NCBI GenBank assembly: GCA_009841255.1
Contig: VXMD01000038.1
Span: forward strand, 6,177 to 70,176
Origin: Candidatus Poribacteria bacterium
GTDB taxonomy: Bacteria > Poribacteria > WGA-4E > WGA-3G
Direction of reading: 5' to 3'
DNA length: 64,000 nt
A program made the position numbers and the translations under genes. A model generated the notes under the pieces. That model had not been told where the DNA came from. It worked only from the letters and a program-made list of their open reading frames with translations, and searched no databases. Shown here one piece after another: positions 3,555 to 25,035 of this stretch; within the stretch, counting starts at the first letter, position 1; each line of letters begins with the position of its first letter.

Positions 3555-3584
3555 TGCAACCTTTTAAAAACTAAGTTACGTCAC
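3555..3584 (+). promoter_or_regulatory. ECF-sigma-type promoter motif TGCAAC-N18-CGTCAC (copy C), 82 nt upstream of the 3666 gene.
   Basis: TGCAAC at 3555-3560 and CGTCAC at 3579-3584. The same hexamers with the same 18-nt spacing occur at 10612, 12230 and 19155. AAC in the -35 element and CGTC in the -10 element are ECF hallmarks. Confidence 0.55.
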
Positions 3585-3665
3585 CTAAATCAATGGCAAA
3601 AAATTACTTCAGAAATTCCAGAGGCTATTGTCTCTACCCCATTATTTATTGCAAGGAGATTAAAA

Positions 3666-4511
3666 ATGAAAACCTTAATGATCGGATTTCTCATTCTGGC
3701 GATGATGAGTGGACCCCTCAACGCTGCTGAGAACGATACACCTAACAAAAAAATTACACTTAACCTTGACAGCAGGTCAGAAGTGTCCGTCAAAGGCTTC
3801 ATTGCCCCGATTACGGATACCATGTCCAACTTCCACGTAACGTGGGAGGCATTGGCAAATCTACGCGCTGCTGAACCAGAGAAACAGCATCCGGCATCGG
3901 TCTTCCGCGCTTTTCTTCCAGACAAAGCCGTTTTGGTCGGCGAACTCTGGGAAATTGAGGAAACGGGTGTGTTAGAATTGCTGCGGCAACTTCATCCCAA
4001 TCCGAATTTGAAAATGCATATCAATGCAGGTGATTCCTATGGGTTGTGGGCATGCCTGCGCGCTTACAATGATACATTCGCCGACATCGTGTTTCGGATC
4101 CACGCAGAGTTCAAGTTAGAAAATGGATGGTTTACTCCGTCTCAGTTCACTGGACATCTTGTGATTGATCGGATTCAGGAGAGGGTGGCATTCTTTGAGA
4201 TGTCCGTCCCTGAAGGTGTTGTAAACTTCGATGTAAACAGAAGGCACAAAAACGCACGGAGTTTTGGAACCGATATGGGTTTTTGTCCGCAAGTAGAACT
4301 CCATGCTGGAACACCCGGTGTTCTGCGAGACACGCAATTCGCAGAAACTATCACCCAAGAAGCAGCGGAACGCGCCTTAGCCCTACGTTTCTATAGGTCA
4401 CAGCAGATTAACTGGGTATCCTTAGAGGAAGCGTTGAACATGGTACAAGCACAACAGAAGCCGATTCACGCTATCTCTATCGATGGACCGTTGGCTGATG
4501 AGGCGTGCTGA
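3666..4511 (+). CDS. Hypothetical secreted protein. Signal peptide MKTLMIGFLILAMMSGPLNAAEN.
   Basis: RBS GGAGA upstream. Clear N-terminal signal peptide. Ends ...DGPLADEAC followed by TGA. The same frame continues open into the next ORF. Confidence 0.6.
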   Translation: MKTLMIGFLILAMMSGPLNAAENDTPNKKITLNLDSRSEVSVKGFIAPITDTMSNFHVTWEALANLRAAEPEKQHPASVFRAFLPDKAVLVGELWEIEETGVLELLRQLHPNPNLKMHINAGDSYGLWACLRAYNDTFADIVFRIHAEFKLENGWFTPSQFTGHLVIDRIQERVAFFEMSVPEGVVNFDVNRRHKNARSFGTDMGFCPQVELHAGTPGVLRDTQFAETITQEAAERALALRFYRSQQINWVSLEEALNMVQAQQKPIHAISIDGPLADEAC

Positions 4512-4568
4512 GGGAGCGGCAAAAGCCTGAGGGCAGTTGTCCTCTCCAACAACCGAGTCATTGAGTTT

Positions 4569-5237
4569 TTGAATGAAAATTTCATCAACATCTGGGTGTC
4601 GAATGTCGAATTGGGACGTACGCCTAATAAGCAGGATTTTATCACGCTGAGACGCGAATATGGGTTTAGACTGTTTGACACAGCGAATCCCTTGGCACAG
4701 GCGATTATGAAAGGCTGGAAGAAAAACTCGCCATCGGATTCTTTGGTTATCTCGTCTGAATTCGAATTGATGGGTAGACAGCCCGTCAATGAACTTCCGG
4801 GCGCGAACAAAGCGCAATATTACCTAACGTTTCTCAAAGAAGCTTTAGCTGGACACCTTCCGGGATTTGGTGGGGAGATCCCAGAACTTCAACCCGAGAA
4901 ACCGGAGTCTGAAAAAGTGTCATCAGCACCGCAAGGGCAATCTGCAGAAGATGCCATGAACGCCTTCGTGAAGGCATTTAAGAATCTTGACGCAGAGGTA
5001 ATGCGTTCGATGCTTACAGGACATGCCAGAGAAACATTTGAAATTGATGCTGAAAACATGCCAGAGGATATACGGACACAGTTCAGTCAAATATTGAGGC
5101 ACATGAAGGTTTTAAACAGCCAATATGTGGGTGACGAATTCCACTTCCGATTGAGAGTCCCGGGGTCAACCCCGCCGGAGGTATCTGTTAAGATGCGAAA
5201 AATGGAAGGTGTGTGGCTCATTTATGAGGTCGAGTGA
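4569..5237 (+). CDS. Hypothetical protein. The TTG start is weak and the ORF is in the same frame as the upstream ORF.
   Basis: ORF of 222 aa. The only in-frame start candidate is TTG at 4569, with no good SD. 19 sense codons link it to the TGA of the upstream ORF. Confidence 0.45.
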   Translation: MNENFINIWVSNVELGRTPNKQDFITLRREYGFRLFDTANPLAQAIMKGWKKNSPSDSLVISSEFELMGRQPVNELPGANKAQYYLTFLKEALAGHLPGFGGEIPELQPEKPESEKVSSAPQGQSAEDAMNAFVKAFKNLDAEVMRSMLTGHARETFEIDAENMPEDIRTQFSQILRHMKVLNSQYVGDEFHFRLRVPGSTPPEVSVKMRKMEGVWLIYEVE

Positions 5238-5341
5238 TTCAAATGACAGAATGAAGGACAGCACACCCGTGTGTGGAGTGTCCGTGTTTTGGATAGATTA
5301 GGAAACCGCTTGTAGCATGAACTGTTAGTTTGCATGGTAGA

Positions 5342-5370
5342 TGACACAAACCGACAGTTTATGCTACAAT
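5342..5370 (+). promoter_or_regulatory. Putative sigma70 promoter TGACAC-N17-TACAAT upstream of the ABC exporter operon.
   Basis: Hexamers and 17-nt spacing read from the sequence, 55 nt upstream of the ATG at 5425. Confidence 0.35.
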
Positions 5371-5424
5371 AGCCACTTATAGAACTCATATTATTGTGAG
5401 GACGCAAATGAGGTATCATTGTAG

Positions 5425-7266
5425 ATGGCTTCCGATAATTCTCACGCCCCCAACACAGAATCAGTATCGCGTCCATCGGTACTGAAAACGCTCCGCCGCT
5501 TTTGTTTCGTGGCGTGGCACGTCAGCCCGTTCGGCGCGATTGTTCAGGCGCTCCTGACGCTCGTATACGGAGGCATTCCTATTGGCATACTTTGGGCAAG
5601 TCGAGGACTCGTAAACCTTATTGCCGCCATCCTCGCCAACGAAACAGAACCGAGTCTACAGACCGCCGCACCCTGGGTGATCGCATTGGTCCTTCTGGCG
5701 ATTCTCAGAAATGTAACAGGCACGTATGACAGTTACTTGCGATGGAAGATGCAGAACCGCATTAGACTCTACCAACAGTGTCTTCTGATCGAAGCCGCAA
5801 CCCATATCGATTTTGCCGTTTTCGACCAGCCACAGACCTACGATTTGATCCAACGGGCGCGACAGGCTCTGGACCATCGGCTCACCAATGTCCTACGATT
5901 TTTAACCGAGATCGGGCAACTCTGTGTAACACTCATCGGATACGGTGTCCTGCTTTGGATCGCAGATCCGCTACTTGTACTTGTGGTCGTCCTACCCGCA
6001 ATCCCGTCGGCGTGGCTGAAAATTAAGACTGCTAAAAGCGGATACATCCACGATTACGATGCCACACCCGTCCGCCGTATGATGGCGTATATGCTGAGTT
6101 TATTGCTCGGTCCATCGTCTGGACAGGAGGTCCGACTCTACGGTCTTTTCGATCCGCTTTTCGGACGCTGGCGAACGAACCATCAAAAATGGCGAGAAGA
6201 GTCGCTTGCAAAGGTCTGGCTCCAAGCAAAAGGCTCTATCGGCACAACGCTTGCTGAAGTGCTTGCCTATTCTGTCGCGATCTTCATACTTGCTGAACGG
6301 ATCGTAAATGGAGAATTGACGCTTGGAGATTATGTGGTTCTCATCGGCGCCGCTGGAACGTTTCAAGCGGATCTTGAGAGTTTGCTGAGTGCGATACGAG
6401 ACGTCTTTGAAGATCTGCCGTTGCTTCAAGATTTACACTTTTTCTTGGAACGTGCGAAACGGGATCAGAGCCAAGCGGGAACACAGCAATTTCCACAACC
6501 CTTACAAACGGGATTAGAGGTCCGAAATCTTCGCTTCCGGTACCCAGAGGCGACTGAGGACGTGCTGCAAGACATAAATTTTCATGTGCGTCCCGGAGAG
6601 GTCATCAGCATCGTCGGGGTCAACGGTGCGGGGAAGTCAACACTCATCAAATTGCTACTCGGTCTCTATCAACCCGATGTTGGAACAATCCGCTATGACG
6701 GTATGCACGTGAAGTCAATTGACCCCGAACAGATTGCCCTTAACTGTGCCGCCGTTTTTCAGGATTTTGCGCGGTTCCGTCGACCGGTCCGTGAGGAATT
6801 AGTGCCAGGTCCACCGAACTATCATATTGAGGAAGAAACGCTGCAGCGCGTTATCAATGCGGTCGGTCTTGAGGAGCGTTTTCAGACCTTTCCACGCGGT
6901 TTAGATACATTTCTCGATCCGTCGCTTGGAGAAGAGGGTGAAGGCGTCGAGTTATCTGGCGGAGAATGGCAAAAGGTCGCGTTGGCGCGGGCTTTGGTCC
7001 GAAACCCACAAGTCCTCGTCCTCGACGAACCGACCGCCGCCTTAGATCCCCAAGCCGAAGTAGAACTTTACCAACAATTTGTTGAACTTGCATCGGGACG
7101 GATGACGTTCCTCATCTCACACCGGATCGGATCCGCTCGTCTCGCAGACCGTATTTTAGTATTAGACGCTAGTCGTATCGTTGAAGATGGCACACATGAC
7201 GCACTCCTCGCTACCAACGGACGTTACGCCCAATTCTTCAGAGCACAGGCGCGTTGGTATCAGTAG
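5425..7266 (+). CDS. ABC exporter, fused TMD-NBD (MsbA/type I exporter fold), subunit 1 of a probable heterodimer.
   Basis: Six TM N-terminal half. Walker A GVNGAGKST. Signature LSGGEWQKVALARAL. Walker B LVLDEPTAALD. H-loop ISHR. Confidence 0.85.
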   Translation: MASDNSHAPNTESVSRPSVLKTLRRFCFVAWHVSPFGAIVQALLTLVYGGIPIGILWASRGLVNLIAAILANETEPSLQTAAPWVIALVLLAILRNVTGTYDSYLRWKMQNRIRLYQQCLLIEAATHIDFAVFDQPQTYDLIQRARQALDHRLTNVLRFLTEIGQLCVTLIGYGVLLWIADPLLVLVVVLPAIPSAWLKIKTAKSGYIHDYDATPVRRMMAYMLSLLLGPSSGQEVRLYGLFDPLFGRWRTNHQKWREESLAKVWLQAKGSIGTTLAEVLAYSVAIFILAERIVNGELTLGDYVVLIGAAGTFQADLESLLSAIRDVFEDLPLLQDLHFFLERAKRDQSQAGTQQFPQPLQTGLEVRNLRFRYPEATEDVLQDINFHVRPGEVISIVGVNGAGKSTLIKLLLGLYQPDVGTIRYDGMHVKSIDPEQIALNCAAVFQDFARFRRPVREELVPGPPNYHIEEETLQRVINAVGLEERFQTFPRGLDTFLDPSLGEEGEGVELSGGEWQKVALARALVRNPQVLVLDEPTAALDPQAEVELYQQFVELASGRMTFLISHRIGSARLADRILVLDASRIVEDGTHDALLATNGRYAQFFRAQARWYQ

Positions 7267-7322
7267 GAACTTTTGATTAAATGACCCTGCCACGCCATTT
7301 ACCCGCAAGGAACAATTGAAAA

Positions 7323-9155
7323 ATGCGAAACGCTAACGGACAATTGAAAACATGGGGATCAGCCGCCAAGGAAAGTTTCGTCGCTTATGCTCGAACTTTG
7401 GTTGTTATATGGCAAAGCGGTTCGCTCGCTGTCTTGGGTATGTTCCTGCTCACCTTATTGCCCGGTCTTGTGCCTGCTTGCCAGTTTTTTGTGACGGAAC
7501 GCTTAGTCAATGCAATCATCGATGCGGTCGGCGAGGCAAACTGGTGGCAAATGGTTTTGCCGTGGCTCATCGGATTGGTGGGTTTACGTATTCTTAGCAC
7601 GGGTGTCGATCTATTGCGAGAACCGCTGTATACGCACTTAGGTGAAAACATTGAAATCTGGATTAACGACGGTATCGCCCGGAAAGTCGATACAGCAGAA
7701 TTAATCGAAATCCAAACCGCAGAATTTCAAGATTCACTGGAACGGGCACGCGCTGTCTCGGGACTCGTACTCCAGAATGTCCTCTGGTATCTCGTTGACA
7801 GCCTTCAACAACTCATCAGTGTCGTCACACTTGGCATCGTGCTGTGGCAGTATCATCCACTCTTGGCATTGCTCCCTGCATTGACGGGGGTTGCCTCTTG
7901 GTGGAGTGACACGCGTTTTTCGGCGGATCTTTACGATTTTGACGTGGAGCAGACCGCCCAACGGCGCGAACAGGATGCCTTGGAAGGAATCCTAACGGAT
8001 CGCGGCACAGGCAAAGAAATTCGGTTATACCAAACCCAAAACGTATGGATAGCACACTGGCATCGCTTAGGACAATCGCTTATAGACGGTCAAATGGGCA
8101 TACGACGGAAGAAATTCTCAGTCTGTCTTGCGCTTGATACCACACGCGGCTTGTTATACGCAGGATCGCTCATTCTTTTATTGTTGGAAGTCTTTCGTGG
8201 CGAGTTGACCGTCGGCACATATATTGCCGCTGCCGCCGCCTTGGTCCAATTAGACGGCATCTGGGACGCTGTCGCCTTTCAATTTCAGGCGATCGTTGAA
8301 GAAATGCGTCCACTGTTTGGGGATCTGTATCGGTTTCTTGACAGACAGTCCGATACTCGGGCCCCTGACACAACCGGTGGAAAAATAAATGAATTCGACG
8401 GAGACAGTACGGTTCAAGATATTGCAGTAGAAGACATCTCATTTTTTTATCCAAATTCGGAAAAACCGGCGTTAACTGATATAACACTCACATTCAAAAA
8501 AGGCGAACGGGTTGCAATCGTTGGACCCAATGGTGCAGGGAAGACCACACTGGCACGTGTATTATTGGGACTCTACCGACCACACTCCGGCAGCGTTCGT
8601 GTCGGAGAGATACCCTTAACCAAAGAGAATCGTCGAGCGTGGCTCACACACTGCAGTGCCGTGTTTCAGGACTTTACGCAGTACCACCTTACCGCACGTG
8701 AGAACATTACCTTCGGTGACCTCGAACATCCAGAACGCATGGAAACGGCATCTATCGCCGGTGGTGCGGCTTCAGTTGTTGACGGACTCGCAGAAGGTTA
8801 CGAGACAATCCTCGGTCCCACTTTCGGTGGCCGTGATCTCTCCGGTGGTGAATGGCAACGTCTCGCAACAGCCCGGAGTTTCATGCGGGAAACCCCGTGG
8901 CTTGTTGTCCTCGATGAACCGACTGCCGCGCTCGATCCGCTCGCTGAACAGGCGGTCTATGAACGCTTTATTGAACGGAGTGTCGGGCAGACGTCCGTGC
9001 TCATCTCGCATCGGCTCTCTTCTGTCCGCACCTGTGATCGGATTCTCGTCCTTGACAACGGAAGCATTGTCGAAGACGGTGACCACGAAACGTTATTGGC
9101 AAAGGATGGGCTTTATGCCCAGTTCTTCAAAGCGCAAGCGCAATGGTATGTTTGA
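7323..9155 (+). CDS. ABC exporter, fused TMD-NBD, subunit 2 of the probable heterodimer.
   Basis: Walker A VGPNGAGKTTL. Signature LSGGEWQRLATARSF. Walker B VVLDEPTAALD. C-terminus AQFFKAQAQWYV matches the partner's AQFFRAQARWYQ. Confidence 0.85.
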   Translation: MRNANGQLKTWGSAAKESFVAYARTLVVIWQSGSLAVLGMFLLTLLPGLVPACQFFVTERLVNAIIDAVGEANWWQMVLPWLIGLVGLRILSTGVDLLREPLYTHLGENIEIWINDGIARKVDTAELIEIQTAEFQDSLERARAVSGLVLQNVLWYLVDSLQQLISVVTLGIVLWQYHPLLALLPALTGVASWWSDTRFSADLYDFDVEQTAQRREQDALEGILTDRGTGKEIRLYQTQNVWIAHWHRLGQSLIDGQMGIRRKKFSVCLALDTTRGLLYAGSLILLLLEVFRGELTVGTYIAAAAALVQLDGIWDAVAFQFQAIVEEMRPLFGDLYRFLDRQSDTRAPDTTGGKINEFDGDSTVQDIAVEDISFFYPNSEKPALTDITLTFKKGERVAIVGPNGAGKTTLARVLLGLYRPHSGSVRVGEIPLTKENRRAWLTHCSAVFQDFTQYHLTARENITFGDLEHPERMETASIAGGAASVVDGLAEGYETILGPTFGGRDLSGGEWQRLATARSFMRETPWLVVLDEPTAALDPLAEQAVYERFIERSVGQTSVLISHRLSSVRTCDRILVLDNGSIVEDGDHETLLAKDGLYAQFFKAQAQWYV

Positions 9156-9234
9156 AGACTAACCCATATGAGAAGAACTAACGTACATCCATCCAGTCTC
9201 CTGACCTTACACGCATTGGGGAGAGGACAAAGCA

Positions 9235-10488
9235 TTGAAACTATACGAAGGCATCTCAACAGGCCTCGCCTCCATTTTTCAGGAAAAACTTCGTTCGGCA
9301 CTCACAATGCTGGGTATCGTTATCGGTGTTGCGGCTGTCCTCGCAATGCTTGCTATCGGGGAAGGTGCGAAGCGTATCGTCACGCAAGAGTTTGAAAAGT
9401 TTGGCGGTCATTTTTTCGTCCGTCGGAATCCGTGGATATGGCGCGGCGACCGCGTATTTCCAAACCGCAGCGGCGAACACTTGAAATATGAAGATGTTTT
9501 AGCGATTGAAGCCGAATGTCCTGCTGTTGAATCTGTGATACCGAGTATTTCTAACGAAGTGCTGGCGCAGACTGAAGGGGGTGCAACAAAATGGACGGAG
9601 TATAATGGCGTCAATTCTTACTTCCCAATAGGGATGGCGTGGGAGATTCAGCAGGGACGTTTCTTTTCCGAGGATGAATTCAATAATCGACGAAAAGTCT
9701 GTGTGCTTGGCTTAGAAGTCGCGACGGAGTTGTTTGGGGATCAGCCTCCGATGGGCACAGAAATCAAGCTTTCGCTTCAAGGTGGAAGACCCGACCGTTT
9801 CCGCATCCTCGGCGTAATGGCGAAACGCGGCACAAGTCTTCAATACGGATTCAGTTGGGACGATGTTGTGTTTATACCTTTGACGACTGCCCAAGACAGA
9901 TTCAAAGGCAAACGCCACGTCAATTATCTTAACGTCAGGGCGGTGGACTCAGATTCCATTGAGAAAGCCGCTGAAGAAGTGACTGCCGTTCTAAAAAAAC
10001 GACATCGGAACCAAGACAATTTTTTCGATATTAGTTTCGCGACTGCGGCTGTCAAAGAACTGGATAAAATCAGTCGCATCATTAAAATCATGCTTAGCAG
10101 TATCGCCGGGTTTTCGCTGTTTGTCGGCAGTGTTGGCATTATGAATATGATGTTGGTTTCAGTGAACCAACGCACCCGTGAGATCGGAATCCGTCGAGCG
10201 ATTGGTGCGAAGCGGCGGGACATTTTCTTGCAGTTTTTGATTGAGGCGATCGTGATGTGCGGTATCGGCGGCTTATTCGGTATTGGACTGGGGATAGGCA
10301 CTGGGTATGTCTGTTCATACATTGCTGTCACAATCGTCAAAGTGATTCCGCAGTGGCCCGTCGTGATTTCACCATACTGGATGGTAGTTTCTGTTAGTAT
10401 CTCCGCTGGTATCGGTATTCTGTTTGGACTCTATCCTGCGATCCGCGCCTCACACATCTCGCCAATTGAGGCACTGAGAACGCAATAA
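9235..10488 (+). CDS. ABC transporter permease, MacB/FtsX family (MacB_PCD periplasmic domain plus FtsX 4-TM domain).
   Basis: TTG start with GGAGAGG RBS. N-terminus LASIFQEKLRSALTMLGIVIGVAAVLAMLAIGEGAK and C-terminal FtsX-like TM bundle are typical of MacB/LolE/DevC. No fused NBD. Confidence 0.8.
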   Translation: MKLYEGISTGLASIFQEKLRSALTMLGIVIGVAAVLAMLAIGEGAKRIVTQEFEKFGGHFFVRRNPWIWRGDRVFPNRSGEHLKYEDVLAIEAECPAVESVIPSISNEVLAQTEGGATKWTEYNGVNSYFPIGMAWEIQQGRFFSEDEFNNRRKVCVLGLEVATELFGDQPPMGTEIKLSLQGGRPDRFRILGVMAKRGTSLQYGFSWDDVVFIPLTTAQDRFKGKRHVNYLNVRAVDSDSIEKAAEEVTAVLKKRHRNQDNFFDISFATAAVKELDKISRIIKIMLSSIAGFSLFVGSVGIMNMMLVSVNQRTREIGIRRAIGAKRRDIFLQFLIEAIVMCGIGGLFGIGLGIGTGYVCSYIAVTIVKVIPQWPVVISPYWMVVSVSISAGIGILFGLYPAIRASHISPIEALRTQ

Positions 10489-10611
10489 AACCAAATTTCA
10501 CATCATTTGTCCCTCTGAAGTTCGACATAGCAAAGTAGCGGGGCTCTCCGCGCAATAGCGGTAGCATGATCTGTTACGCCGACTTAAATTTTCGCGTTAT
10601 TCCGAAAATAG

Positions 10612-10641
10612 TGCAACTTCTTGGAACCCAAAATCCGTCAC
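10612..10641 (+). promoter_or_regulatory. ECF-sigma-type promoter motif TGCAAC-N18-CGTCAC (copy A) upstream of the TlpA-like gene.
   Basis: GAAAATAGTGCAACTTCTTGGAACCCAAAATCCGTCACTTAAATTAA. Near-identical over ~48 nt to the copy at 12221-12268. Confidence 0.6.
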
Positions 10642-10718
10642 TTAAATTAACAGATATAAAATTTTACTCAAATTGCTACTTGCAAATTCAATGCAAGTTC
10701 TACTTTAAAGGGGAAAAA

Positions 10719-12122
10719 ATGCGCTTCGTAACGATTAACCTATTCCTTGTCTGTTTATTTCTGTTTGGCATCGGTCACCTCGCTTTTGGACATGATGAAA
10801 TTGAAACGGCTTCTGAATCACACGGTCCCTATATGGGCGACGCGTCTTGGGATGCCGCGCTTGAAACGTTCTATGAACTTCTCAAGACGGATCCAAAAGC
10901 GGCGCGCGTGGAACTCGAGAACGTTGCCAAAACGTTGTTCAACGAACATCCGCGGACAGAAGAGTGGGTGGAACTTTTTTACCAAGTCTTCTACCAAATC
11001 AGTCTAAAGGAAGCTCAAGAAAAAGAAACCGAGCCCCCCTGGCAGCTTATTTCGGAAATCAAACGTCTATATGAACTCGGACTCGAAATGCTAACTTCTA
11101 TGGATACAGAGAAGTACGCAAAGCAGATACAAGTTCACCAAGATGCCCTTGATTACTATACAGAACTCGCTGAATTCGCCGAGATTATGGGCGATAAATC
11201 ACTGAAATCTGAAGAGATCGCTCCGAACAAGCAGAACCACACTTCTCAATCTGAGTCAGCATTATCTGATGCGGAAGACCAAATCGCTCATCAGCAGTAT
11301 ATGGAGAAATTTTTCGAGTTGCTACCGACCGACCCAGAAGCCGCACGTCAGGAACTTGAAACCTATGCTGCAAAGTCATATCAGGGACATCCGCTTACAG
11401 AAGAATGGGTGGCACACTTTTTTCGTATGGGAAGTGACGGGGAAGCATCGGTTTCAGATATTACCCGTTTTATGGAAATGACAAAACAGATACGAACCGA
11501 TATGGATCCTGAAAAGTATGCTAAAGAAATCAAGGGATTAGAAGATAGTTTGACGCAACTGAAAATGGTTGCAACATTCTATGAACGCGACGGGATAACT
11601 GATGCAAAGATTCCATTCAACCCAAACGTAGGCGACAAGAAGCGTGAACAGAAAAGTGCTTCGGATGCCCCCAAGGTCTCCCATACTGAGAAAATCGGCA
11701 AACCTGCGATGGATTTTGAGGTAATAGACTTGAAGGGTCAGGAGCTCTCATTAAAGAAATACCGCGGACAGGTCGTGCTACTTGACTTCTGGGCGACATG
11801 GTGTTTTCCGTGTAGGGCAGAAATGCCGCATCTCAAAAGGGTTTATGATAAATACAAAGACCAAAAATTTGAGATTATTGGGATCAGTTTAGACCATGGA
11901 AGGGCAGTGCTTGATTCGTATGTTGAAAAACAGAATATCACCTGGCTTCAGTTTTTGGATGAGGGGGGTGCCGTTACACAAATGTATAACGTTAAAGGAA
12001 TTCCGGCGACCTTTCTGATTGATGGAGAAGGGATCGTTCGCAAAGTTGAACTCCGTGGGCGCGCGCTTGAGGCAGCTGTCGCGGAACTGGTGAAGGAGAA
12101 TCTGTCTCAGCAGACCAAATAG
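10719..12122 (+). CDS. TlpA/ResA-like periplasmic thiol-disulfide oxidoreductase (thioredoxin fold, WCFPC active site) with an N-terminal tandem-duplicated ~120-aa domain of unknown function.
   Basis: Signal peptide MRFVTINLFLVCLFLFGIGHLAFG. C-terminal LLDFWATWCFPCRAEMPHLKRVY...IIGISLD...GIPATFLIDGEGIV. Two N-terminal repeats share (DP)KAAR.ELE..A...(Q/N).HP.TEEWV and D.EKYAK(Q/E)I. Confidence 0.8.
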   Translation: MRFVTINLFLVCLFLFGIGHLAFGHDEIETASESHGPYMGDASWDAALETFYELLKTDPKAARVELENVAKTLFNEHPRTEEWVELFYQVFYQISLKEAQEKETEPPWQLISEIKRLYELGLEMLTSMDTEKYAKQIQVHQDALDYYTELAEFAEIMGDKSLKSEEIAPNKQNHTSQSESALSDAEDQIAHQQYMEKFFELLPTDPEAARQELETYAAKSYQGHPLTEEWVAHFFRMGSDGEASVSDITRFMEMTKQIRTDMDPEKYAKEIKGLEDSLTQLKMVATFYERDGITDAKIPFNPNVGDKKREQKSASDAPKVSHTEKIGKPAMDFEVIDLKGQELSLKKYRGQVVLLDFWATWCFPCRAEMPHLKRVYDKYKDQKFEIIGISLDHGRAVLDSYVEKQNITWLQFLDEGGAVTQMYNVKGIPATFLIDGEGIVRKVELRGRALEAAVAELVKENLSQQTK

Positions 12123-12130
12123 TTCTTGTA

Positions 12131-12161
12131 GGGAAATCGGGTTCTTGTGCCTCGGTTTCCC
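12131..12161 (+). terminator. Hairpin (GGGAAATCGG/CTCGGTTTCCC, 10-nt loop) immediately after the TlpA-like stop. Weak terminator candidate, no clean U-tract.
   Basis: Inverted repeat read from the sequence. Confidence 0.3.
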
Positions 12162-12229
12162 TATAAATCCAATTCGAAAGAATTTAGAAACCCACCAGAA
12201 ATTGATTTTTCACATTATTCTGAAAATGA

Positions 12230-12259
12230 TGCAACTTCTTAAAACCTAAAATCCGTCAC
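12230..12259 (+). promoter_or_regulatory. ECF-sigma-type promoter motif TGCAAC-N18-CGTCAC (copy B), 40 nt upstream of the ECF sigma-fusion gene. This is a putative autoregulatory promoter.
   Basis: GAAAATGATGCAACTTCTTAAAACCTAAAATCCGTCACTTAAGTTAA. Confidence 0.6.
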
Positions 12260-12298
12260 TTAAGTTAAAAGGTGTAATAATTCCGGAGGAGGCTGGTA

Positions 12299-15200
12299 GT
12301 GGAACACAGCGATGCTGAACTCATTCAACGGGTATTACAAGGCGATCAGGATGCGTTCGGTCCCTTAGTCGAAAAGTATCAGAAGGGAGTTCACGCGCTT
12401 GCTTGGCGAAAAATCGGCGATTTTCACATCGCACAAGAAATTGCGCAGGACGCGTTCTTCAAGGCATACCAGCAACTCGGAACCCTAAAAAACCATAACC
12501 AATTTGCGGGATGGCTGTATGTCATCGCGGCACACTTGTGTGCTGACTGGTTCCGAAAACATCGCCCACCGGAACAATCCTTAGAAGTTACTGATATGAG
12601 TGAGGTGAATGAAGTGTCATACTCTCGATACATCGCAGAAAAACAGGCAACCGAAGCCGATGAAGCGCGTCGTGAAGTCGTTAAGAAGCTGCTCCAGAAG
12701 TTACCAGAAAGCGAACGCACCGTGATGACGCTTTACTACCTCGGTGAAATGACGATCAAAGCCATTTCCGAGTTTCTCGGGGTCTCTCCGAACACCATCA
12801 AAAGCCGCCTGAGTCGCGCACGCGATCGTCTAAAGAAGGAAGAAGACCTGATTCGACAAAATCTCAGCAGTTTCCAACTGCCTGCTAACTTGACACAGGA
12901 TATCATGAACGAGATCTCACGTATCGTCCCTGCAGCACCCACTGCGAATAAACCTGTAGTGCCTTGGGTGTTTTCTGCGGCATCTGCTGTCTTAATTTTT
13001 CTTTTGATGGGGGTTGGCACACAATATCTCTCCCGTTTTCAGAAACCCTACGATTTGAACGCCACATCGGAACGAACAGTTGAACTCATTGAGGCGGTTT
13101 TGGTCTTAGATTCACCCACGAAACCTGCGGTGCGAAATCAGGCAGGAAGTTCATCGACGCCCGGTAGGAACCCGGGTGCAGGTCAGCAACCCGATGCGCG
13201 ACTTTTTGCCGCCGCACTTGTGGATGAAACCGAGGTTTCAACGCCAGAACCGCAGTGGATCCAAACGAAGGGACCCGCAGGCGGGCTTGTCAATACCCTC
13301 TTCACGACAAGGCGTGGAGACATTTACGCTGGAACTTCCACGAATTTTTACAAGATGGCAGACGACAGACATTCATGGAAACTCGTCATCGCTGGAGGTC
13401 CAACCTCACTCAGCCTGAAAGATTGGATAATGGGCGGCACACAACAAATGGCAGAGCGAGATGATACACTCTACGTTGCTATCAATGGAGAGGTATCGGC
13501 TTCTACAGATTATGGTGAGACATGGATGTCGCTCGATGCGCACCCAAAAGGACAACCCGTCGGGTTCGTCTTAACGGATGGGGTCCCTGGGGCAGAAGTC
13601 GACATGACCCTGAACCTTGCTCTCGTTGACGGTGTATTCCGTTCTGTGGACGCCGGCAAGTCGTGGATACCTCTGAACGATGGAAATTTGGCAGATCGAA
13701 AAATTCGTGCAATTGCCGCCGTTGAAAACACCCTGTTTGCTGGGACTGACAGTGGACTCTATCGACGCAACGAGGATACATGGGAAAGATTGACCATCCG
13801 TCCGGCAGAGACCTCCGAAAATCAATTCGCTATCCATGCCTTAGCCGTCGATGAACATCGTCTCTATGTTGCTGCGGGGGACGAACTCACAAATCAGAAT
13901 CAGCTTGGGATGCAATTTAGGGCTACGCTGACAGGAAGTGGCCAGTGGTCCCTTTACCGTTCAACCGATCGAGGCGATACATGGTATTCCATAGATCCAC
14001 GAAAAAGGCAAGAGCAGGAGGAAGAGAGACAACAGAGGGGACAATTTGGGGGAGGTTTCCCATTCCCTGGTGCAGAGGAAACAGAAATCTATATGCCCAG
14101 TGTCAAGCTCTTCGCGACGCCCGGTAGGATTGTCGTCGCAGATGCGTTTGGAGAACTTTTCTACTCCATGAATACTGGGGAAACCTGGACTGCTTTAGAT
14201 GTAAAGAGCGGGTCAGGTTACAACGTGCCGCCGCCTGTGCTGATGATGGACGAGAACACTTTCTACAAAGGAGGACCTTCTGGGGTTCAGACCACAATTG
14301 ATGGTGGCAAAACGTGGTCTGAGTTTAATAGCGGACTCGTGGGCACTCCCGTTCAGACGCTCATCGCTGTTAAGGGTGAGCTCTACGCAAATTCAACAAA
14401 TGGGTTTATCTCCTCAACGGATAGGGGTGAATCGTGGATGCCGCTTCCCAGTGAGATTGACCACGGTGTCATTATTGAGGCGTTTGACGATACTTTGTAT
14501 GTAAAGAGAGGGAATCACATGAATACCCCTTCACCTATAGCCCGTCTATCCACCGAGGACAATAGTCTAACGTTTATCCCCGGCATGCCTGCCTTTGAAA
14601 GCGTCACGTCACAAAATATGGACGAAGAAATGAACAAAATTATGATGGAAGCGTTTACCGACAAGGCTCAGCAAAGCCTTGAAAAAGGCGAGCCACCAAA
14701 TCCCGAGGATGTTGATTTTGACCAGTTAAATGAAGCCATGAATAAGGTTATGCAAGAACAAGCCTCGGCTGGTCTGCTGGCGTTTATTGGAAGATTTGCC
14801 GTGAGTGGCGATACCTACTATGTGGAATATGGGAAGGCGCTTTACAGATGGAAACCGGGTATGCGTGAATGGCACAACACGGGTTTAGTAGATCAAGGCG
14901 AAGACGCTTTTGCATCCCTATTCTCCGGTCCTTTTGATTATTCCACTGATGTCTCCACTTCTTATGATACCATTAATTCTAGCGGTTTCAAAATCGCCGT
15001 GTCGGACAGCACGGTTTACATCGGAAAACGGGAAGGGCACCTCTTTCAATCGTTTGATGAAGGGGACACATGGAACGATGTTACTGCAGATATCCCGTTC
15101 TCTTTTGAGAAATTCGATGCAATCGCTTTCGCAGGACCTACCGTCTACGTGGCAACCGACAAAGGCATTGCGTATTCGAGCGACGGCACGCACTGGCACG

Positions 15201-15433
15201 CCACAACCGATACCGAAGGGAGAACGCCTGTCATTTCCCGATTGGCAGTGGTAGGCACAACGGTATATGGGCAGACTGACCAACACGTGTATCTGTTGAA
15301 AGAGGGTTCTAATATATGGAAACAGGCAACACCCGAACTCCCAGGCTCGGTCATCTCTTTCGCTGTTGATGGCAACACACTGTATATCGGAACTGCGAAT
15401 CGTGGTGTCCTGCGTTTCACGCTTGATGAATAA
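12299..15433 (+). CDS. ECF (group IV) sigma-70 factor fused to a single TM helix and an ~800-aa extracytoplasmic BNR/Asp-box-repeat beta-propeller domain.
   Basis: GTG start with GGAGGA RBS. Sigma region 2: LIQRVLQGDQDAFGPLVEKYQKGVHALAWRKIGDFHIAQEIAQDAFFKAY. Sigma region 4: ERTVMTLYYLGEMTIKAISEFLGVSPNTIKSRLSRARDRL. TM helix VVPWVFSAASAVLIFLLMGVG. At least eight S-x-D-x-G-x-(T/S)-W Asp-boxes (STDYGETW, SVDAGKSW, STDRGDTW, SMNTGETW, TIDGGKTW, STDRGESW, SFDEGDTW, SSDGTHW). Confidence 0.85.
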   Translation: MEHSDAELIQRVLQGDQDAFGPLVEKYQKGVHALAWRKIGDFHIAQEIAQDAFFKAYQQLGTLKNHNQFAGWLYVIAAHLCADWFRKHRPPEQSLEVTDMSEVNEVSYSRYIAEKQATEADEARREVVKKLLQKLPESERTVMTLYYLGEMTIKAISEFLGVSPNTIKSRLSRARDRLKKEEDLIRQNLSSFQLPANLTQDIMNEISRIVPAAPTANKPVVPWVFSAASAVLIFLLMGVGTQYLSRFQKPYDLNATSERTVELIEAVLVLDSPTKPAVRNQAGSSSTPGRNPGAGQQPDARLFAAALVDETEVSTPEPQWIQTKGPAGGLVNTLFTTRRGDIYAGTSTNFYKMADDRHSWKLVIAGGPTSLSLKDWIMGGTQQMAERDDTLYVAINGEVSASTDYGETWMSLDAHPKGQPVGFVLTDGVPGAEVDMTLNLALVDGVFRSVDAGKSWIPLNDGNLADRKIRAIAAVENTLFAGTDSGLYRRNEDTWERLTIRPAETSENQFAIHALAVDEHRLYVAAGDELTNQNQLGMQFRATLTGSGQWSLYRSTDRGDTWYSIDPRKRQEQEEERQQRGQFGGGFPFPGAEETEIYMPSVKLFATPGRIVVADAFGELFYSMNTGETWTALDVKSGSGYNVPPPVLMMDENTFYKGGPSGVQTTIDGGKTWSEFNSGLVGTPVQTLIAVKGELYANSTNGFISSTDRGESWMPLPSEIDHGVIIEAFDDTLYVKRGNHMNTPSPIARLSTEDNSLTFIPGMPAFESVTSQNMDEEMNKIMMEAFTDKAQQSLEKGEPPNPEDVDFDQLNEAMNKVMQEQASAGLLAFIGRFAVSGDTYYVEYGKALYRWKPGMREWHNTGLVDQGEDAFASLFSGPFDYSTDVSTSYDTINSSGFKIAVSDSTVYIGKREGHLFQSFDEGDTWNDVTADIPFSFEKFDAIAFAGPTVYVATDKGIAYSSDGTHWHATTDTEGRTPVISRLAVVGTTVYGQTDQHVYLLKEGSNIWKQATPELPGSVISFAVDGNTLYIGTANRGVLRFTLDE

Positions 15434-15524
15434 GGTGGATAAGTGATGAGAGATATGAGTTATCACGCGCGAATCGTCAGTTTCGATGAATGAAGCAACC
15501 TGTAATTGCTAAGGAGGAACTAAA

Positions 15525-16094
15525 ATGATCCGATTTTTTATTTTTCTCACGTTTTTTGTCATCTTCACAGCTGGAAATACTGGCTGCGATCACGCCCCTG
15601 ATGGCGTGGATGAAGAAACGTCGGTCAGCACCGTCGAGAGGTTGAGTGAAGAAGACAAAGCAGCCCTTGCAAATAAGTTGAAATCTCTAGATTATCTGTT
15701 ATCTCGCCCACTCGAACAGCGAATAGCAAGGTCACAAGAATATGTGCGCAAGTATCTTGAACTCGAAGATAAAGACAGTGCGGAAGCATTAGAGACACTC
15801 ACAATGGCTTTGTATATCCACGCTAAGGGAGATCATCCTCTCTTGGAAGAATGGGTAGTTCTCGCACATAAGGTTTTCCGGGAAAAAGAAGCAACGGTGC
15901 CGGAGCTTCTGCGTGCGAAGCAGATAGAACTCCAAATCGCGCGCGATAACAATGAAAGTCGGAAGCATATTAAAGCTTTGGAAGAAGATGCTGAACTATT
16001 TGAACATCAGATTCAGGACCTTAAAGCACAGGGGGTAAACCCTCAAGAATTCAAAATTTCTGTAGAAGTCGAGGGTGATGAAGATGAAGAGTAA
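15525..16094 (+). CDS. Hypothetical lipoprotein carrying one copy of the 'EEWV' domain found duplicated in the TlpA-like protein. Acidic C-terminus.
   Basis: RBS AAGGAGGAAC. Signal plus Cys (FTAGNTGC). HPLLEEWVVLAHKVFREK resembles HPRTEEWVELFYQVF and HPLTEEWVAHFFRM in the 10719 protein. Confidence 0.6.
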   Translation: MIRFFIFLTFFVIFTAGNTGCDHAPDGVDEETSVSTVERLSEEDKAALANKLKSLDYLLSRPLEQRIARSQEYVRKYLELEDKDSAEALETLTMALYIHAKGDHPLLEEWVVLAHKVFREKEATVPELLRAKQIELQIARDNNESRKHIKALEEDAELFEHQIQDLKAQGVNPQEFKISVEVEGDEDEE

Positions 16095-16132
16095 CCCTAT
16101 TTTTTAGTGTTTCTAATGTGGAGGAAATTGAA

Positions 16133-16687
16133 ATGCGTCAGTTAAAAGGGTTATTTATCTGTTTGTCAGTTTTATTAACTGTATCGCTCATTTTTAAGTT
16201 TGGGTGTACCACCGAAGAATACGGTAAAACAGGATTTGATATTGTATTGGCAGTTACCGGCATGACACGAGTTACTTCTGCCTTCAGCGTTATGAACGCA
16301 TTGCAAAAGATTGATGCATTGGTTATTGATGATGCAACTTACAAGGTAATAGGAGCCACACTGCCGTTTGGTAGGGTGAAAAATGAGTCGCCAGTTACAA
16401 TAAAGTATCCTCATCACACTGAAAAGGTTAAGAATGAAATGACCGAGCCAGTTTTGGAAAACAAAATAGGCTGGAATCTGAAGCCTAATGAACCGAAATA
16501 CTTTATTGTTCAGGTAAGGGCACTCGCTGAGGCAGATCCCACTAATGATGTGAATGAAGTAATCTCAGAGCGTGTAAAAGCAGCTTTAATAGAAGTCGTC
16601 GAAAAAGTGGGGTTTGAAGCGCGTGTGGAGAGCATAGAAGCACTCGAAGCAACTTCTACGAAGCGTTACACATTCGGACCCAATTAG
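16133..16687 (+). CDS. Hypothetical lipoprotein (signal peptide, FKFGC lipobox-like).
   Basis: ATG at 16133 with GGAGGA 7 nt upstream. The ORF-track GTG at 16118 sits inside the RBS. Hydrophobic N-terminus LKGLFICLSVLLTVSLIFKFGC. Confidence 0.55.
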   Translation: MRQLKGLFICLSVLLTVSLIFKFGCTTEEYGKTGFDIVLAVTGMTRVTSAFSVMNALQKIDALVIDDATYKVIGATLPFGRVKNESPVTIKYPHHTEKVKNEMTEPVLENKIGWNLKPNEPKYFIVQVRALAEADPTNDVNEVISERVKAALIEVVEKVGFEARVESIEALEATSTKRYTFGPN

Positions 16688-16712
16688 CAATCCAAGAACT
16701 GTAGGCGTGCTT

Positions 16713-16743
16713 CCCGAGCACGCCTTTTTTATTCTGTAAACTC
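16713..16743 (+). terminator. Rho-independent terminator: AGGCGTGCT-tcccg-AGCACGCCT followed by TTTTTTATT.
   Basis: Perfect 9-bp stem, 5-nt loop and U-tract, 26 nt after the stop at 16687. Confidence 0.75.
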
Positions 16744-16807
16744 GCTTTGTAAACCCAGCGTTAAATCTTCTATACGAAATTTGACAATGAGACTTTAAGT
16801 TATTATA

Positions 16808-17048
16808 ATAACCCAAGTTACGACCTATTTATTCTCACTGCGAAGCAATAGCACCCCTACGGGGTGAAAAAGTGCATGAAAACCTTATTGAAATCCACAG
16901 AAATACCCAAGCAAGACCCCAATATTCATAGTGGGTTTCAGAATTACTGATACATTCTACATTGGCGACGTTAGGAAACCTCGATAGCGAGGCGGAAAGC
17001 GTGTCTATTTATTTTTGAATCCACCATAGTAATAGTAACTTGGGTTAT
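16808..17048. repeat. ~240-bp intergenic element bounded by perfect 14-bp inverted repeats ATAACCCAAGTTAC (16808-16821) and GTAACTTGGGTTAT (17035-17048). Candidate MITE or structured RNA.
   Basis: IRs read directly from the sequence. Internal hairpin CACCCC-tac-GGGGTG near 16852. Lies between the terminator at 16713 and the Omp85-like gene at 17096. Confidence 0.4.
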
Positions 17049-17095
17049 AACAGTCTTTAAAACCGCTGAAAACCAGATATGCCCAGAAAACAGAT

Positions 17096-19048
17096 ATGAA
17101 ATACATATTATATATCATAGTTTTTTTCACGCTTACTGTATCCCCACAAACGTTTGCTGAAACGCCAGACGGCACAATTCCTTTCGATTGCCCTGATATA
17201 CCAAACCCCAAGTTTCAATTCCACTTCACCCGTGAACTGATCGCGCTTGCTGTTACAACAGCACCCTTCAATACCGTGGACGATCTTTACATCCAAATTT
17301 ACGATGATGAAGCAGGTATTTATGATAAACTCGCGCAATACTACGGCGAGGAGGTGAAAGTAAAAAACTGGCACGGTGTCCAAGAAGATGATAGGGTCCG
17401 ACTCTATGTCCCGGACGGAACCGCTCTGCAAAATCCGCAGGCAGATGACACCTTCACGGGCATCTTTGCAGTCGTAAAAGGCGATGCGGCCATCTATCTG
17501 CTAAACATCGTTGGGAGTGTTCCAACGCAACAAACGGGTCGGCTCTTGGGGAGTCTCGGTGAACTCGGCATTGAGATCTCTGAATTGAAATCGCTTCCGG
17601 CGTTGGAGATTGATAAGCGATCTTTATCTTCACCGACAGGCTTCCGAATAGCCGATGGTTCCCCAATTCATGAAATTCAGATTAAAGGCAATCAGAAAAT
17701 TGATCGGACGGAGATTCTCGAAACGCTTGAAGCAGGTGACGAGGACATCGATAAAGCGGTGGAAGCACTACGAAAAAAAATGGGATACAGGTTAGAAGGC
17801 GTAGAAACATCAGTTAAACAGGAAAATGACAAGCATATTGCGGTCATTACTGTGAAGGAACGTCCTTCGCAGTCTGCCGGCTTTGGTGGTGGGGGACCTA
17901 TTATTAATTTTAACCGTGTCACAGGTTGGGAACTCGGTGCTGAACTCGAAAGTAGGCTTCCGGGTGCTCGTCTTCCAGACGGCACTTTGGCTTCAAAGCT
18001 TTTAGGATATATAGGCTACGGATTTGGAAACCGGCTGGTCAATTACGAGATTGGCGGAAAAACAATGCCTTTTTTGGCGTATACACACCGATCAGGAACA
18101 ACTACTTTTGGAGATAAATCTGACAAATGGTATCTTGGATTCGGAGTAGATGCCAAAGTCTACCGTGTCACGGACATCACAACACCGATTCTTGCTGTTG
18201 TTGATGACTATGGTTCCGCTTACTATGATTCCCCTTTTCGGCTACTGTATAGCCTTTTTGGTGGAACCGATCTTCATAATTATTATTCGAGAAGAGGATT
18301 TGAAATTGGCTTGCGATGGGAAAATTTACCACGACCCGTGCCTACTTCTATCCCAATGCACTTAGCGAAGTTGACGTTTCTTGTTGAAAACCACGAGAGT
18401 CTAAAAAAAAGCACAGATTGGCATTTCTTCAATTGGCATTCAACGTCAAAAGCGAGAGAGAATCCAGTAATAACACCCGGTCGCATGCGGAGCGTCATGT
18501 TTGAATACGATCTTAACACCCGCCGAGACTACTTGGGTTGGCATAATACTTTCTTTGTTGAGCATAGTAGATCCGCCTTCGGCTCGGATTTCGATTTTAC
18601 GCGCTATCAACTCCATCTCCGTTATGCACATCCACTCGGTAAACATCAGATACGGACCCGCGCGGTCGGCAGTTTTTCAACCGCCTCCCTACCGATCCAA
18701 CGCCAATTTACCATCGGGGGTCCAGGGGTATTGAACGGCTACCCGCTCTACGCTTTCGCGGGGGACCGTGGCTACCTCTTCAACATCGAATATTTCTACC
18801 CTTTCCCGGAACTACCCACCTGGAGAAACATGCAATTTGATTTTTTTACGCTCTTTCTGGTGTTTTTCCTTGATGCAGGTCAGGCATGGAACATAGATGA
18901 CGAAAGATCTACGTTTGTGCCGAAGACCGATGCCGGTATCGGTTTCCAGTTCGGTGAACGCGACTCCTTTCTACGCTTTAATGTTGCGCAGGCTTTTGAA
19001 GCAGAACAAGGTGTGCAATTCAACCTCCTCTGGTTTTATAGTTTTTAG
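17096..19048 (+). CDS. Omp85/BamA-TamA-family outer-membrane beta-barrel protein with POTRA-like module(s) and a distinctive ~180-aa N-terminal domain (paralog 1).
   Basis: Signal peptide MKYILYIIVFFTLTVSPQTFA. POTRA-like IHEIQIKGNQKIDRTEILETLEAGDEDIDKAVEALRKKMGY. C-terminal barrel motifs GGPGVLNGY..., FLDAGQAW, GIGFQFGERDSFLRFNVAQAF and the terminal ...WFYSF. Confidence 0.65.
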   Translation: MKYILYIIVFFTLTVSPQTFAETPDGTIPFDCPDIPNPKFQFHFTRELIALAVTTAPFNTVDDLYIQIYDDEAGIYDKLAQYYGEEVKVKNWHGVQEDDRVRLYVPDGTALQNPQADDTFTGIFAVVKGDAAIYLLNIVGSVPTQQTGRLLGSLGELGIEISELKSLPALEIDKRSLSSPTGFRIADGSPIHEIQIKGNQKIDRTEILETLEAGDEDIDKAVEALRKKMGYRLEGVETSVKQENDKHIAVITVKERPSQSAGFGGGGPIINFNRVTGWELGAELESRLPGARLPDGTLASKLLGYIGYGFGNRLVNYEIGGKTMPFLAYTHRSGTTTFGDKSDKWYLGFGVDAKVYRVTDITTPILAVVDDYGSAYYDSPFRLLYSLFGGTDLHNYYSRRGFEIGLRWENLPRPVPTSIPMHLAKLTFLVENHESLKKSTDWHFFNWHSTSKARENPVITPGRMRSVMFEYDLNTRRDYLGWHNTFFVEHSRSAFGSDFDFTRYQLHLRYAHPLGKHQIRTRAVGSFSTASLPIQRQFTIGGPGVLNGYPLYAFAGDRGYLFNIEYFYPFPELPTWRNMQFDFFTLFLVFFLDAGQAWNIDDERSTFVPKTDAGIGFQFGERDSFLRFNVAQAFEAEQGVQFNLLWFYSF

Positions 19049-19066
19049 AGACAATGAAATGCGCCG

Positions 19067-19087
19067 ACACGCACATCGTGTTTTTTC
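19067..19087 (+). terminator. Weak intrinsic terminator (ACACG-cacat-CGTGT plus T6) after Omp85 paralog 1.
   Basis: 5-bp stem with TTTTTT, 19 nt after the stop. Confidence 0.35.
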
Positions 19088-19154
19088 CTATCTGTTTGGT
19101 TTCAGGTTGTATCAACATTAGTAATATCGTCCCCTTTCGAGAGATGGAAAAAAA

Positions 19155-19184
19155 TGCAACCTTTGGGTCCCTAAGTGTCGTCAC
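19155..19184 (+). promoter_or_regulatory. ECF-sigma-type promoter motif TGCAAC-N18-CGTCAC (copy D) upstream of the PA14 membrane protein gene.
   Basis: GAAAAAAATGCAACCTTTGGGTCCCTAAGTGTCGTCACCTTATT. A second, decayed copy (TGCAAC at 19258-19263, -10 position TAGTAA) follows 100 nt downstream. Confidence 0.5.
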
Positions 19185-19373
19185 CTTATTCATAGGATGT
19201 TAAATTTTTTAGCGAAGTCGTGATAAACATGTTTATAATCTGAGAGAATGAAAAAACTGCAACTTTTTGGGAACTCGTTTGTAGTAATGTAAGGGATATA
19301 CTTGTTGGAGGTATCTCCGAATCCCGACCTCTTTTGTAGATACACCTGTCTCACACGCATGAGGAACACCAAA

Positions 19374-25010: not shown

Positions 25011-25035
25011 ACCACCGTTCAGGAAGCATAAAAAA

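Follow-up and report, generated by a model that had tools for sequence, protein, structure and literature searches.

A stretch of 64,000 nucleotides from a Candidatus Poribacteria bacterium (contig VXMD01000038.1, positions 6,177 to 70,176; the whole stretch is referred to here as the window) contains four + strand copies, designated A to D, of the motif TGCAAC-N18-CGTCAC. We consider it likely that RNA polymerase bearing an extracytoplasmic function (ECF, group 4) sigma factor uses these four sites as promoters, that this sigma factor belongs to a family with an expanded membership in Poribacteria, and that the sigma fusion encoded at 12299-15433 is one member of this family. An earlier note on this DNA had interpreted the four copies as ECF-type promoters that form the candidate regulon of this sigma factor and include a promoter for the sigma gene itself. 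The copies, with identical hexamers and an 18-nt spacer, were all found exactly at the positions it gave, and its reading of them as ECF-type promoters was supported by their intergenic, co-oriented placement, by conservation 5' of orthologous genes and by agreement with published promoter anatomy, all of which are arguments from sequence. The regulon was retained as a set of probable ECF promoters; its assignment to this sigma factor alone was dropped, because the same hexamers are found at paralogs.

Exactly four copies of TGCAAC-N18-CGTCAC were present in the window, where 0.01 would be expected by chance, and none of 100 shuffles reached four exact copies. No further TGCAAC/CGTCAC site was found in the 64 kb when the spacer was allowed to range from 16 to 20 nt. 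When two mismatches were tolerated, eight sites were obtained against 5.4 expected, a count no higher than chance, and thus only the four exact copies stand out. A position weight matrix (PWM) for the motif, derived from related genomes and applied to the window, gave scores of 69 bits for A, 54 for B, 53 for C and 57 for D, compared with -24 for the next best site in the window and -5.6 for the best shuffle. The minus strand of the window held no convincing copy, as had been stated before; a single match at 12-41 with one mismatch lacked the flanks and had no PWM score. The remaining 40 kb of the window, which carries housekeeping and metabolic genes, contained zero copies.

All four sites are intergenic and lie 39-189 nt 5' of a + strand start codon, in agreement with the 40-190 nt given previously. 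The A-rich GAAAA(T/A) tract upstream and the (C/T)T(T/A)A sequence downstream, which had likewise been pointed out, are present at the copies. Promoter A (3545-3594) consists of the A-tract GAAAAATAA, TGCAAC at 3555-3560 followed by CTTTT, the 18-nt spacer, CGTCAC at 3579-3584 and CTAAATCAAT, with 81 nt between the -10 hexamer and the start codon at 3666. Promoter B (10602-10651) is built from GAAAATAG, TGCAAC at 10612-10617, TTCTT, the spacer, CGTCAC at 10636-10641 and TTAAATTAA, and its -10 hexamer is 77 nt from the start codon at 10719. Promoter C (12220-12269), the putative autoregulatory site, combines GAAAATGA, TGCAAC at 12230-12235, TTCTT, the spacer, CGTCAC at 12254-12259 and TTAAGTTAAAAG, and lies 39 nt from the sigma start codon at 12299. 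The spacers of B and C are almost the same, as are their downstream sequences. Promoter D (19145-19194) is formed by GGAAAAAAA, TGCAAC at 19155-19160, CTTTG, the spacer, CGTCAC at 19179-19184 and CTTATTCATAGG; 189 nt separate its -10 hexamer from the ATG at 19374, which is kept in relatives, and a TTG at 19302 would make this distance 117 nt. A housekeeping sigma-70 reading of the four sites was rejected, as a scan with the consensus TTGACA-17-TATAAT gave no good match on them. The one overlap, a 9/12 match, was with the A-tract of copy A, and shuffles gave as many matches in total. The standard sigma-70-type consensus is present in the cluster, at 16781, and is distinct from the motif.

Loci fetched from related genomes or metagenomes (numbered with the prefix L) were compared with the window. 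Three of these (L003, L004 and L005) were chosen by their sigma ortholog alone (82, 73 and 61% identity), with the motif left unused. TGCAAC-N18-YGTCAC stood just 5' of all five sigma-fusion genes with upstream DNA in these three loci, with differing spacers, and for the orthologs themselves (n = 3) it was located 39 nt before the start, as in the window. The position of promoter C was kept in L003 (82%), L004 (73%, TGTCAC), L005 (61%, TGTCAC), L126 (81%), L035 and L057; this conservation, together with the copy carried by the sigma gene in the window, is consistent with the autoregulation that had been proposed. Counterparts of promoter B were found 75-78 nt 5' of thioredoxin orthologs of 74-92% identity (L021, L027 and L091) and also in L106, and counterparts of promoter D were found 5' of orthologs of the PA14-domain protein (L014/L003, L031, L085 and L102). 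Among the Poribacteria copies, the flanks were scrambled past approximately 60 nt.

A genome scan was performed with the extended pattern AWRRTGCAACYTYT-N14-YGTCAC across one genome per species (185,579 species), and the counts that follow are lower bounds. At least 120 tiles matched, and approximately 94 of those listed were from Poribacteria or from bins encoding the same sigma fusion. Among the matches listed, none of 100 evaluable Poribacteria sites fell within an open reading frame (ORF) of at least 120 aa, and 88 of 100 had a same-strand ORF starting within 400 nt; in other phyla 17 of 25 sites lay inside ORFs, as for chance matches. The motif was therefore neither equally frequent in coding DNA nor randomly oriented, the two patterns that the earlier note had named as speaking against it. 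The genes downstream of the listed sites included more than 54 sigma-fusion paralogs, thioredoxin orthologs and PA14 orthologs, and further genes encoded an ABC ATPase, STAS and MoxR proteins, PD40 and Reg_prop propeller proteins and a DUF4097 protein. At two loci (L039, 1242-1583; L109, 7527-7868) the motif was followed by a 113-aa STAS-domain protein, by our reading of the anti-sigma-antagonist type.

In the aligned sites, information content was confined to approximately -13 to +47 from the T of TGCAAC and was close to zero outside this span, which is similar in size to a polymerase footprint. The aligned consensus was tttt..aAAATAA-TGCAAC-CTTTtga.atcTAAg.t.-CGTCAC-tt.AATcAA..gatgt, and of 124 hexamer pairs found in 842 kb of DNA from Poribacteria, all but one (123) had a spacer of 18 nt. 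The promoter would accordingly be pictured as a block of about 60 nt that comprises an A-rich tract, TGCAAC with a T-tract, a fixed 18-nt spacer with a TAAG that is partly conserved, CGTCAC and an AAT-rich start region, and transcription would be predicted to start approximately 6-9 nt past CGTCAC.

The gene at 12299-15433 (+ strand) encodes a protein of 1044 aa in which an ECF sigma domain made up of sigma2 and sigma4 (approximately residues 1-185) is followed by a linker of 35-40 aa, one transmembrane helix (approximately residues 220-245), a stretch rich in Pro and Gly and, outside the membrane, a part of about 720 aa. The sigma domain matched PF04542, PF08281 and PF04545 above cutoffs and TIGR02937 at 90.9 bits (cutoff 42.9); sigma1 and sigma3 regions were not found in it by family profile matches. 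The best specific family matches were SigW (123.5 bits, cutoff 209), RpoE (92, cutoff 236) and SigM, all under their equivalog cutoffs, and the Rhodopirellula/Verrucomicrobium sigma family TIGR02989 reached 73.9 (cutoff 124.6). Among solved structures, B. subtilis SigW (5wuq, E 6e-28) was the closest in sequence. Judged by these comparisons, the sigma domain is related to the SigW/RpoE/SigM equivalogs and is not a member of them. All named close homologs of the sigma fusion were from Candidatus Poribacteria.

The linker (approximately residues 186-221) contains no Cys or His, and residues 1-200 hold a single cysteine, C81. No Pfam match to FecR, to a zinc-binding anti-sigma domain (HxxxCxxC) or to a carbohydrate-binding module was obtained in the sigma fusion, and because the linker is just 35-40 aa long, no standard anti-sigma domain fits within it. 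The extracytoplasmic repeats are of the BNR/Sortilin/GH74 type. A structure model of residues 320-1044, of fair confidence, matched two-propeller GH74 xyloglucanases with a TM score of approximately 0.6, and the same predicted outside domain also matched Bacteroides double-propeller glycan sensors (TM approximately 0.2-0.3, ranks 15-33).

The family has many members. Among loci found through the motif, 44 distinct sigma fusions were identified, with 38-87% identity overall and 69-88% over the first 200 residues, and the motif was located 5' of 66 of 86 family sigma genes in the fetched genome loci. A motif-blind sample of 80 sigma-fusion metagenome loci was collected by protein similarity, 74 of which had usable upstream DNA. 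The best match within 400 nt upstream had no mismatches in 5 of these 74 loci, one in 17 and two in 7; the 22 loci with at most one mismatch compare with approximately 0.003 expected per locus, and their sites were mostly 23-58 nt before the start. Distant paralogs carried TGCACC-N18-CGTCAC, TGCAAC-N18-CGTCAT or TGCACC-N18-TATCTT, all at the same N18 spacing. The notion that the hexamers are identical in all paralogs was rejected as an ascertainment artefact of the motif-found loci, since the protein-anchored metagenome sample showed variants. The description of the hexamers as strictly conserved thus holds for the four copies in the window and not across the family, where variants occur at the same spacing; the exact hexamers hold in closer subfamilies. 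One 552-kb contig, Ga0209543_1000003, carries at least eight sigma-fusion paralogs (L149, L152, L160, L165, L166, L170, L172 and L186), several of which have variant promoters such as TGCACC-N18-CGTCAC or TGCAAC-N18-CGTCAT.

The change of AAC to ACC in the -35 element was accompanied by a change of S172 to R (18 of 21) and of P164 to V or A. Both residues lie in the sigma4 recognition helix and were among the five most informative of approximately 200 columns. Because the base change tracks recognition-helix residues, this covariation supports recognition of the motif by the sigma factor itself.

These observations point to a probable circuit. One promoter would drive the sigma gene and two lipoprotein genes, creating positive feedback. 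The gene for the secreted thiol-disulfide oxidoreductase, the ABC/MacB-type exporter group and the PA14/Omp85 outer-envelope group would be under the control of the other three. The sigma factor would be tethered to the membrane by its one helix, and its GH74-like outside part probably senses a ligand, perhaps a glycan. A signal may then free or activate the sigma domain, most likely by proteolysis as in other sigma fusions, from which this step is borrowed, and the activated domain would switch on its own gene and the envelope genes. As far as the sequence and its comparison with approximately 100 related genomes indicate, this is a self-activating stress or sensing circuit, real but fairly ordinary in kind. 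Elsewhere in the window, on the - strand at 56621-57994, a DegP/HtrA-like serine protease with two PDZ domains is encoded by a gene that lacks an upstream motif copy; this protease could be a candidate for the cleavage of envelope proteins, the tethered sigma factor among them.

Several points weigh against the reading of the four sites as promoters of this sigma family and of this sigma factor in particular. Paralogs with near-identical sigma2 and sigma4 carry the same hexamers, which leaves the driver of each site ambiguous, and about 20 of the 86 family sigma genes have no recognisable motif, some of them with sigma-domain identities of 74-76%. The covariation of S172 and P164 with the -35 bases ignores shared ancestry. 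The classical two-element model does not account for the partly conserved spacer TAAG or for the conservation of the start region, and a distance of 18 nt between AAC and CGTC is near the upper limit of those published. The sigma and linker part of the structure model is of low confidence (pLDDT below 50), and because this part is unreliable, the way in which the sigma domain is held and released was taken from fused sigma factors such as IutY and SCO4117. The first of these points leads to an explanation that we regard as quite possible, if slightly less probable than not: the sites are ECF-type promoters, and the sigma factor at 12299-15433 is not their sole or main reader. Paralogous fusions encoded elsewhere, or a small conventional ECF sigma factor, would read some or all of them, with overlapping regulons tuned by the spacer and start signatures. 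The sigma2 and sigma4 regions are almost invariant among the 44 paralogs, and at least three sigma fusions with the same hexamers lie within 45 kb on OY762722.1; because paralogous fusions share both the hexamers and near-identical DNA-reading regions, the sigma factor of the window need not be the only driver. By spacer and downstream sequence, B and C group with the sites at orthologs of the window's own sigma factor, and A and D belong to classes found elsewhere in front of other paralogs or different genes. In L003, a promoter like A, with a similar spacer and downstream signature, drives a 943-aa sigma paralog before the same ABC1-ABC2-MacB genes, and in Bacillus subtilis sigma factors are known to overlap in recognition, with the spacer as a modulator (PMC5758882). 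Yet the 64 kb of the window hold just one sigma fusion, which lies amid the four sites, and class-specific spacers could simply reflect orthology.

Two explanations that dispense with a promoter function fared much worse. It is very improbable that the block is a site for another DNA-binding regulator or a transcribed RNA element, although conservation does reach into the spacer (TAAG) and approximately 17 nt beyond the -10 element and an additional conserved block is present in the PA14 leader. The two hexamers do not repeat each other in either direct or inverted orientation, and the site is therefore asymmetric, as a promoter is; its orientation is always that of the downstream gene, and its elements agree piece by piece with ECF promoters. 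At site C, the 39 nt before the sigma start codon can hold no more than a short leader that includes a ribosome-binding site, and Rfam gave no match in window positions 1-24000. Recent duplication of one sequence, as a repeat or a mobile cassette devoid of regulatory meaning, is a still more improbable origin of the four copies. Spread by duplication is suggested by the cassette of promoter, leader and signal peptide (MRF.MINL...) that precedes unrelated genes, but the spacers vary between copies, whereas hexamers, spacing and flanks persist between species with proteins of only 40-90% identity. The sites are orthologous across genomes and no information extends beyond the block of about 60 nt, a conservation pattern that already contradicts duplication as the explanation.

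The Poribacteria may possess a large ECF group, for which no description was found (at least eight copies on the one 552-kb contig), of membrane-tethered sigma factors that lack a recognisable anti-sigma domain and carry a GH74-like double propeller as a possible glycan sensor. The members would share the N18 architecture, and paralogs would be kept apart in part by small hexamer changes (AAC to ACC with S172R; CGTCAC to TATCTT) and in part by subfamily-specific spacer and start sequences, with the regulon having grown through copying of a promoter, leader and signal-peptide cassette. We put this broader proposal forward tentatively and think it rather less probable than not.

The consensus of sigma-W promoters in B. 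subtilis is TGAAAC-N16-CGTA, and sigma-E of S. coelicolor is under the control of a two-component system, with no fused sensor. The motif described here resembles the promoters of B. subtilis sigma-W, -M, -X and -V (tgaAACnTTTT...CGTC/CGTA), in which AAC is followed by nTTTT and a CGTC -10 element, in its AAC core, T-tract and CGTC core, and the systems are also alike in that the sigma gene has its own copy, the targets are envelope functions and related sigma factors overlap in recognition (PMC5758882). The two differ in that AAC and CGTC are 18 nt apart here, optimal ECF spacers being 14-17 bp (PMC5758882), and in that the sigma factor is fused to a helix and a large outside domain, with no separate anti-sigma factor. 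Targets of S. coelicolor sigma-E (nnnAAC-N17/18-CGTCnn; PMC6767563 Table 1) have the same layout, include some validated N18 sites and form an envelope regulon (PMC6767563), although N17 is dominant there and departures from N18 are almost absent here. The spacing in the window exceeds that of the best-studied ECF promoters by 1-2 nt.

Sigma factors with membrane-spanning C-terminal extensions have been described, namely IutY (ECF243), SCO4117 (ECF52) and ECF52/53, as has ECF57 of Planctomycetes, which has WD40-like repeats and occurs at 5.3 per planctomycete genome (PMC8999054, PMC7826278). The fusion in the window is similar to IutY, SCO4117 and ECF57 in joining sigma factor and sensor in one polypeptide, and its family resembles ECF57 in having propeller-type repeats and several copies per genome. 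Unlike IutY (FecI-FecR) and ECF52/53, it has no detected FecR or zinc-binding anti-sigma domain and only a linker of about 35-40 aa, and unlike ECF57 it has one cysteine (C81) rather than two linking sigma2 and sigma4 and is GH74-like rather than WD40-like, so that it is set apart by the described features. Its outside domain also matched those of the Bacteroides hybrid two-component sensors BT4663 and BT4673, which share a double propeller; their output is a kinase with a response regulator rather than a sigma factor, and the structural match was weaker than that to GH74. We found no paper that joins Poribacteria with ECF sigma factors, and the main text of the ECF reclassification paper does not mention Poribacteria. 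The circuit is of a well-known kind, in a phylum for which no description was found; it may be more novel in combining a tethered sigma factor that lacks an anti-sigma domain, a GH74-like sensor and numerous paralogs with matching promoter variants.

A specialist would not be surprised by these results, because a self-activating ECF sigma factor with an envelope regulon is familiar. The Poribacteria are uncultured, and their gene regulation can therefore be read only from sequence. For one of their largest families of signalling proteins, the motif offers a concrete and testable promoter code, and it lists the envelope functions that would be switched on: an oxidoreductase, an ABC/MacB-type exporter and PA14/Omp85 proteins in the window, and STAS, MoxR and propeller proteins in other members of the phylum. 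The family also provides a natural series of paralogs, with matching promoter variants, that would be useful for work on the evolution of sigma specificity and cross-talk and as a source of orthogonal sigma-promoter pairs.

The identities given previously to the genes of this region, namely the ECF sigma fusion, the TlpA-like thioredoxin, a secreted protein and the PA14 protein between two Omp85 proteins, hold. Promoter A heads a probable operon (3666-10488, + strand), whose genes all lie on one strand with short gaps. Its first gene (3666-4511) encodes a 281-aa protein with a signal peptide and no family match, and its second (4569-5237) a 222-aa protein. Two genes for ABC proteins come next (5425-7266 and 7323-9155), the product of each matching the ABC ATPase domain in its C-terminal part, and a gene for a MacB/FtsX-type permease (9235-10488) is last. 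The ABC genes might additionally be fed from a weak sigma-70-like site at 5341-5370. No homolog of the 281-aa gene with a motif copy of its own was found; the homolog in L044 follows a sigma fusion, and those in L028 and L100 have no motif upstream.

Promoter B precedes the gene for a secreted ResA/TlpA-like thiol-disulfide oxidoreductase of 467 aa (10719-12122, + strand) whose N-terminal region is long and whose signal peptide, MRFVTINLFLVCLFLFGIGHLAFG, is conserved. A near-identical signal peptide, MRF(L/V/M)MINL(F/L)LVCLLLFGIGYLAFG, was found on quite different ORFs 3' of the motif (window 10719-10790; L009, L026, L090, L092, L101, L074, L095 and L112). These ORFs encode the 467-aa thioredoxin, conserved proteins of 63-64 aa similar to residues 1-58 of that thioredoxin, a DUF4097 protein of 283 aa and short proteins of 90-120 aa. 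Since the near-identical signal peptide occurs on such differing ORFs, a cassette of promoter, leader and signal peptide appears to have been copied before different genes. At L021 (approximately 7500-7700), where the sigma domain is 89% identical, the stretch corresponding to promoter C is deleted and the sigma gene lies about 50 nt after the thioredoxin gene, which retains its own motif copy. Because promoter C is missing and the two genes adjoin, the L021 sigma gene would be transcribed from the thioredoxin promoter.

The sigma gene is followed in the same operon by two genes for predicted lipoproteins (15525-16094, and 16118 or 16133 to 16687, + strand). Relatives of the second (16118-16687) are present in more than a dozen other sigma-fusion loci, and because of this recurrence the protein is a candidate partner or regulator. 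The first (15525-16094) has a region of approximately 90 aa in common with the N-terminal part of the thioredoxin protein. A strong terminator-like hairpin of 10 pairs followed by a T-run (16703-16725, + strand) marks the end of the sigma operon. Downstream of it, a perfect sigma-70-type promoter, TTGACA-17-TATAAT (16781-16809, + strand), lies 5' of Omp85a (17096-19048) and outside the ECF set. Because Omp85a has its own sigma-70-type promoter behind the hairpin, it is probably no target; of the Omp85-flanked PA14 target that had been proposed, the PA14 gene is kept and Omp85a is removed.

Between promoter D and the PA14 gene, a conserved leader block (19258-19335, + strand) begins with TGCAAC-N18-TAGTAA (19258-19287, with TAGTAA at 19282-19287). 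This element had been described as a fifth, decayed copy of the motif. It is present as described, and it recurs 5' of the PA14 orthologs in L014, L031, L085 and L102, with spacers that differ at no more than approximately two positions and with a likewise conserved sequence of about 50 nt after it. In L085, a 150-nt insertion parts the TAGTAA element from the intact promoter, and the element still adjoins the gene. Given its recurrence in four other genomes, the fifth copy belongs to the conserved sequence of the PA14 leader and is no product of random decay. It may act as a signal in the leader or as a second promoter whose -10 element is a different one, and at a guess TGTAGTAAT could serve as the extended -10 of a housekeeping promoter. 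A structured RNA in the PA14 leader was considered and dropped, as the consensus fold of two aligned leaders (window and L031) was weak and unconvincing.

Promoter D heads a second probable operon (19374-24068, + strand), which contains the gene for the PA14-domain membrane protein (19374-20546), located between the two Omp85 genes, followed by Omp85b with DUF4252 and POTRA matches (20734-23172) and possibly by the gene for a DUF4159 protein (23340-24068). The PA14, Omp85 and DUF4159 genes are also grouped in L003 and L004. Beyond this operon, at 24150-30395, the window carries four paralogous genes of the PhyH type (phytanoyl-CoA dioxygenase family), a gene for a short-chain dehydrogenase and one for a Laminin_G_3 protein.

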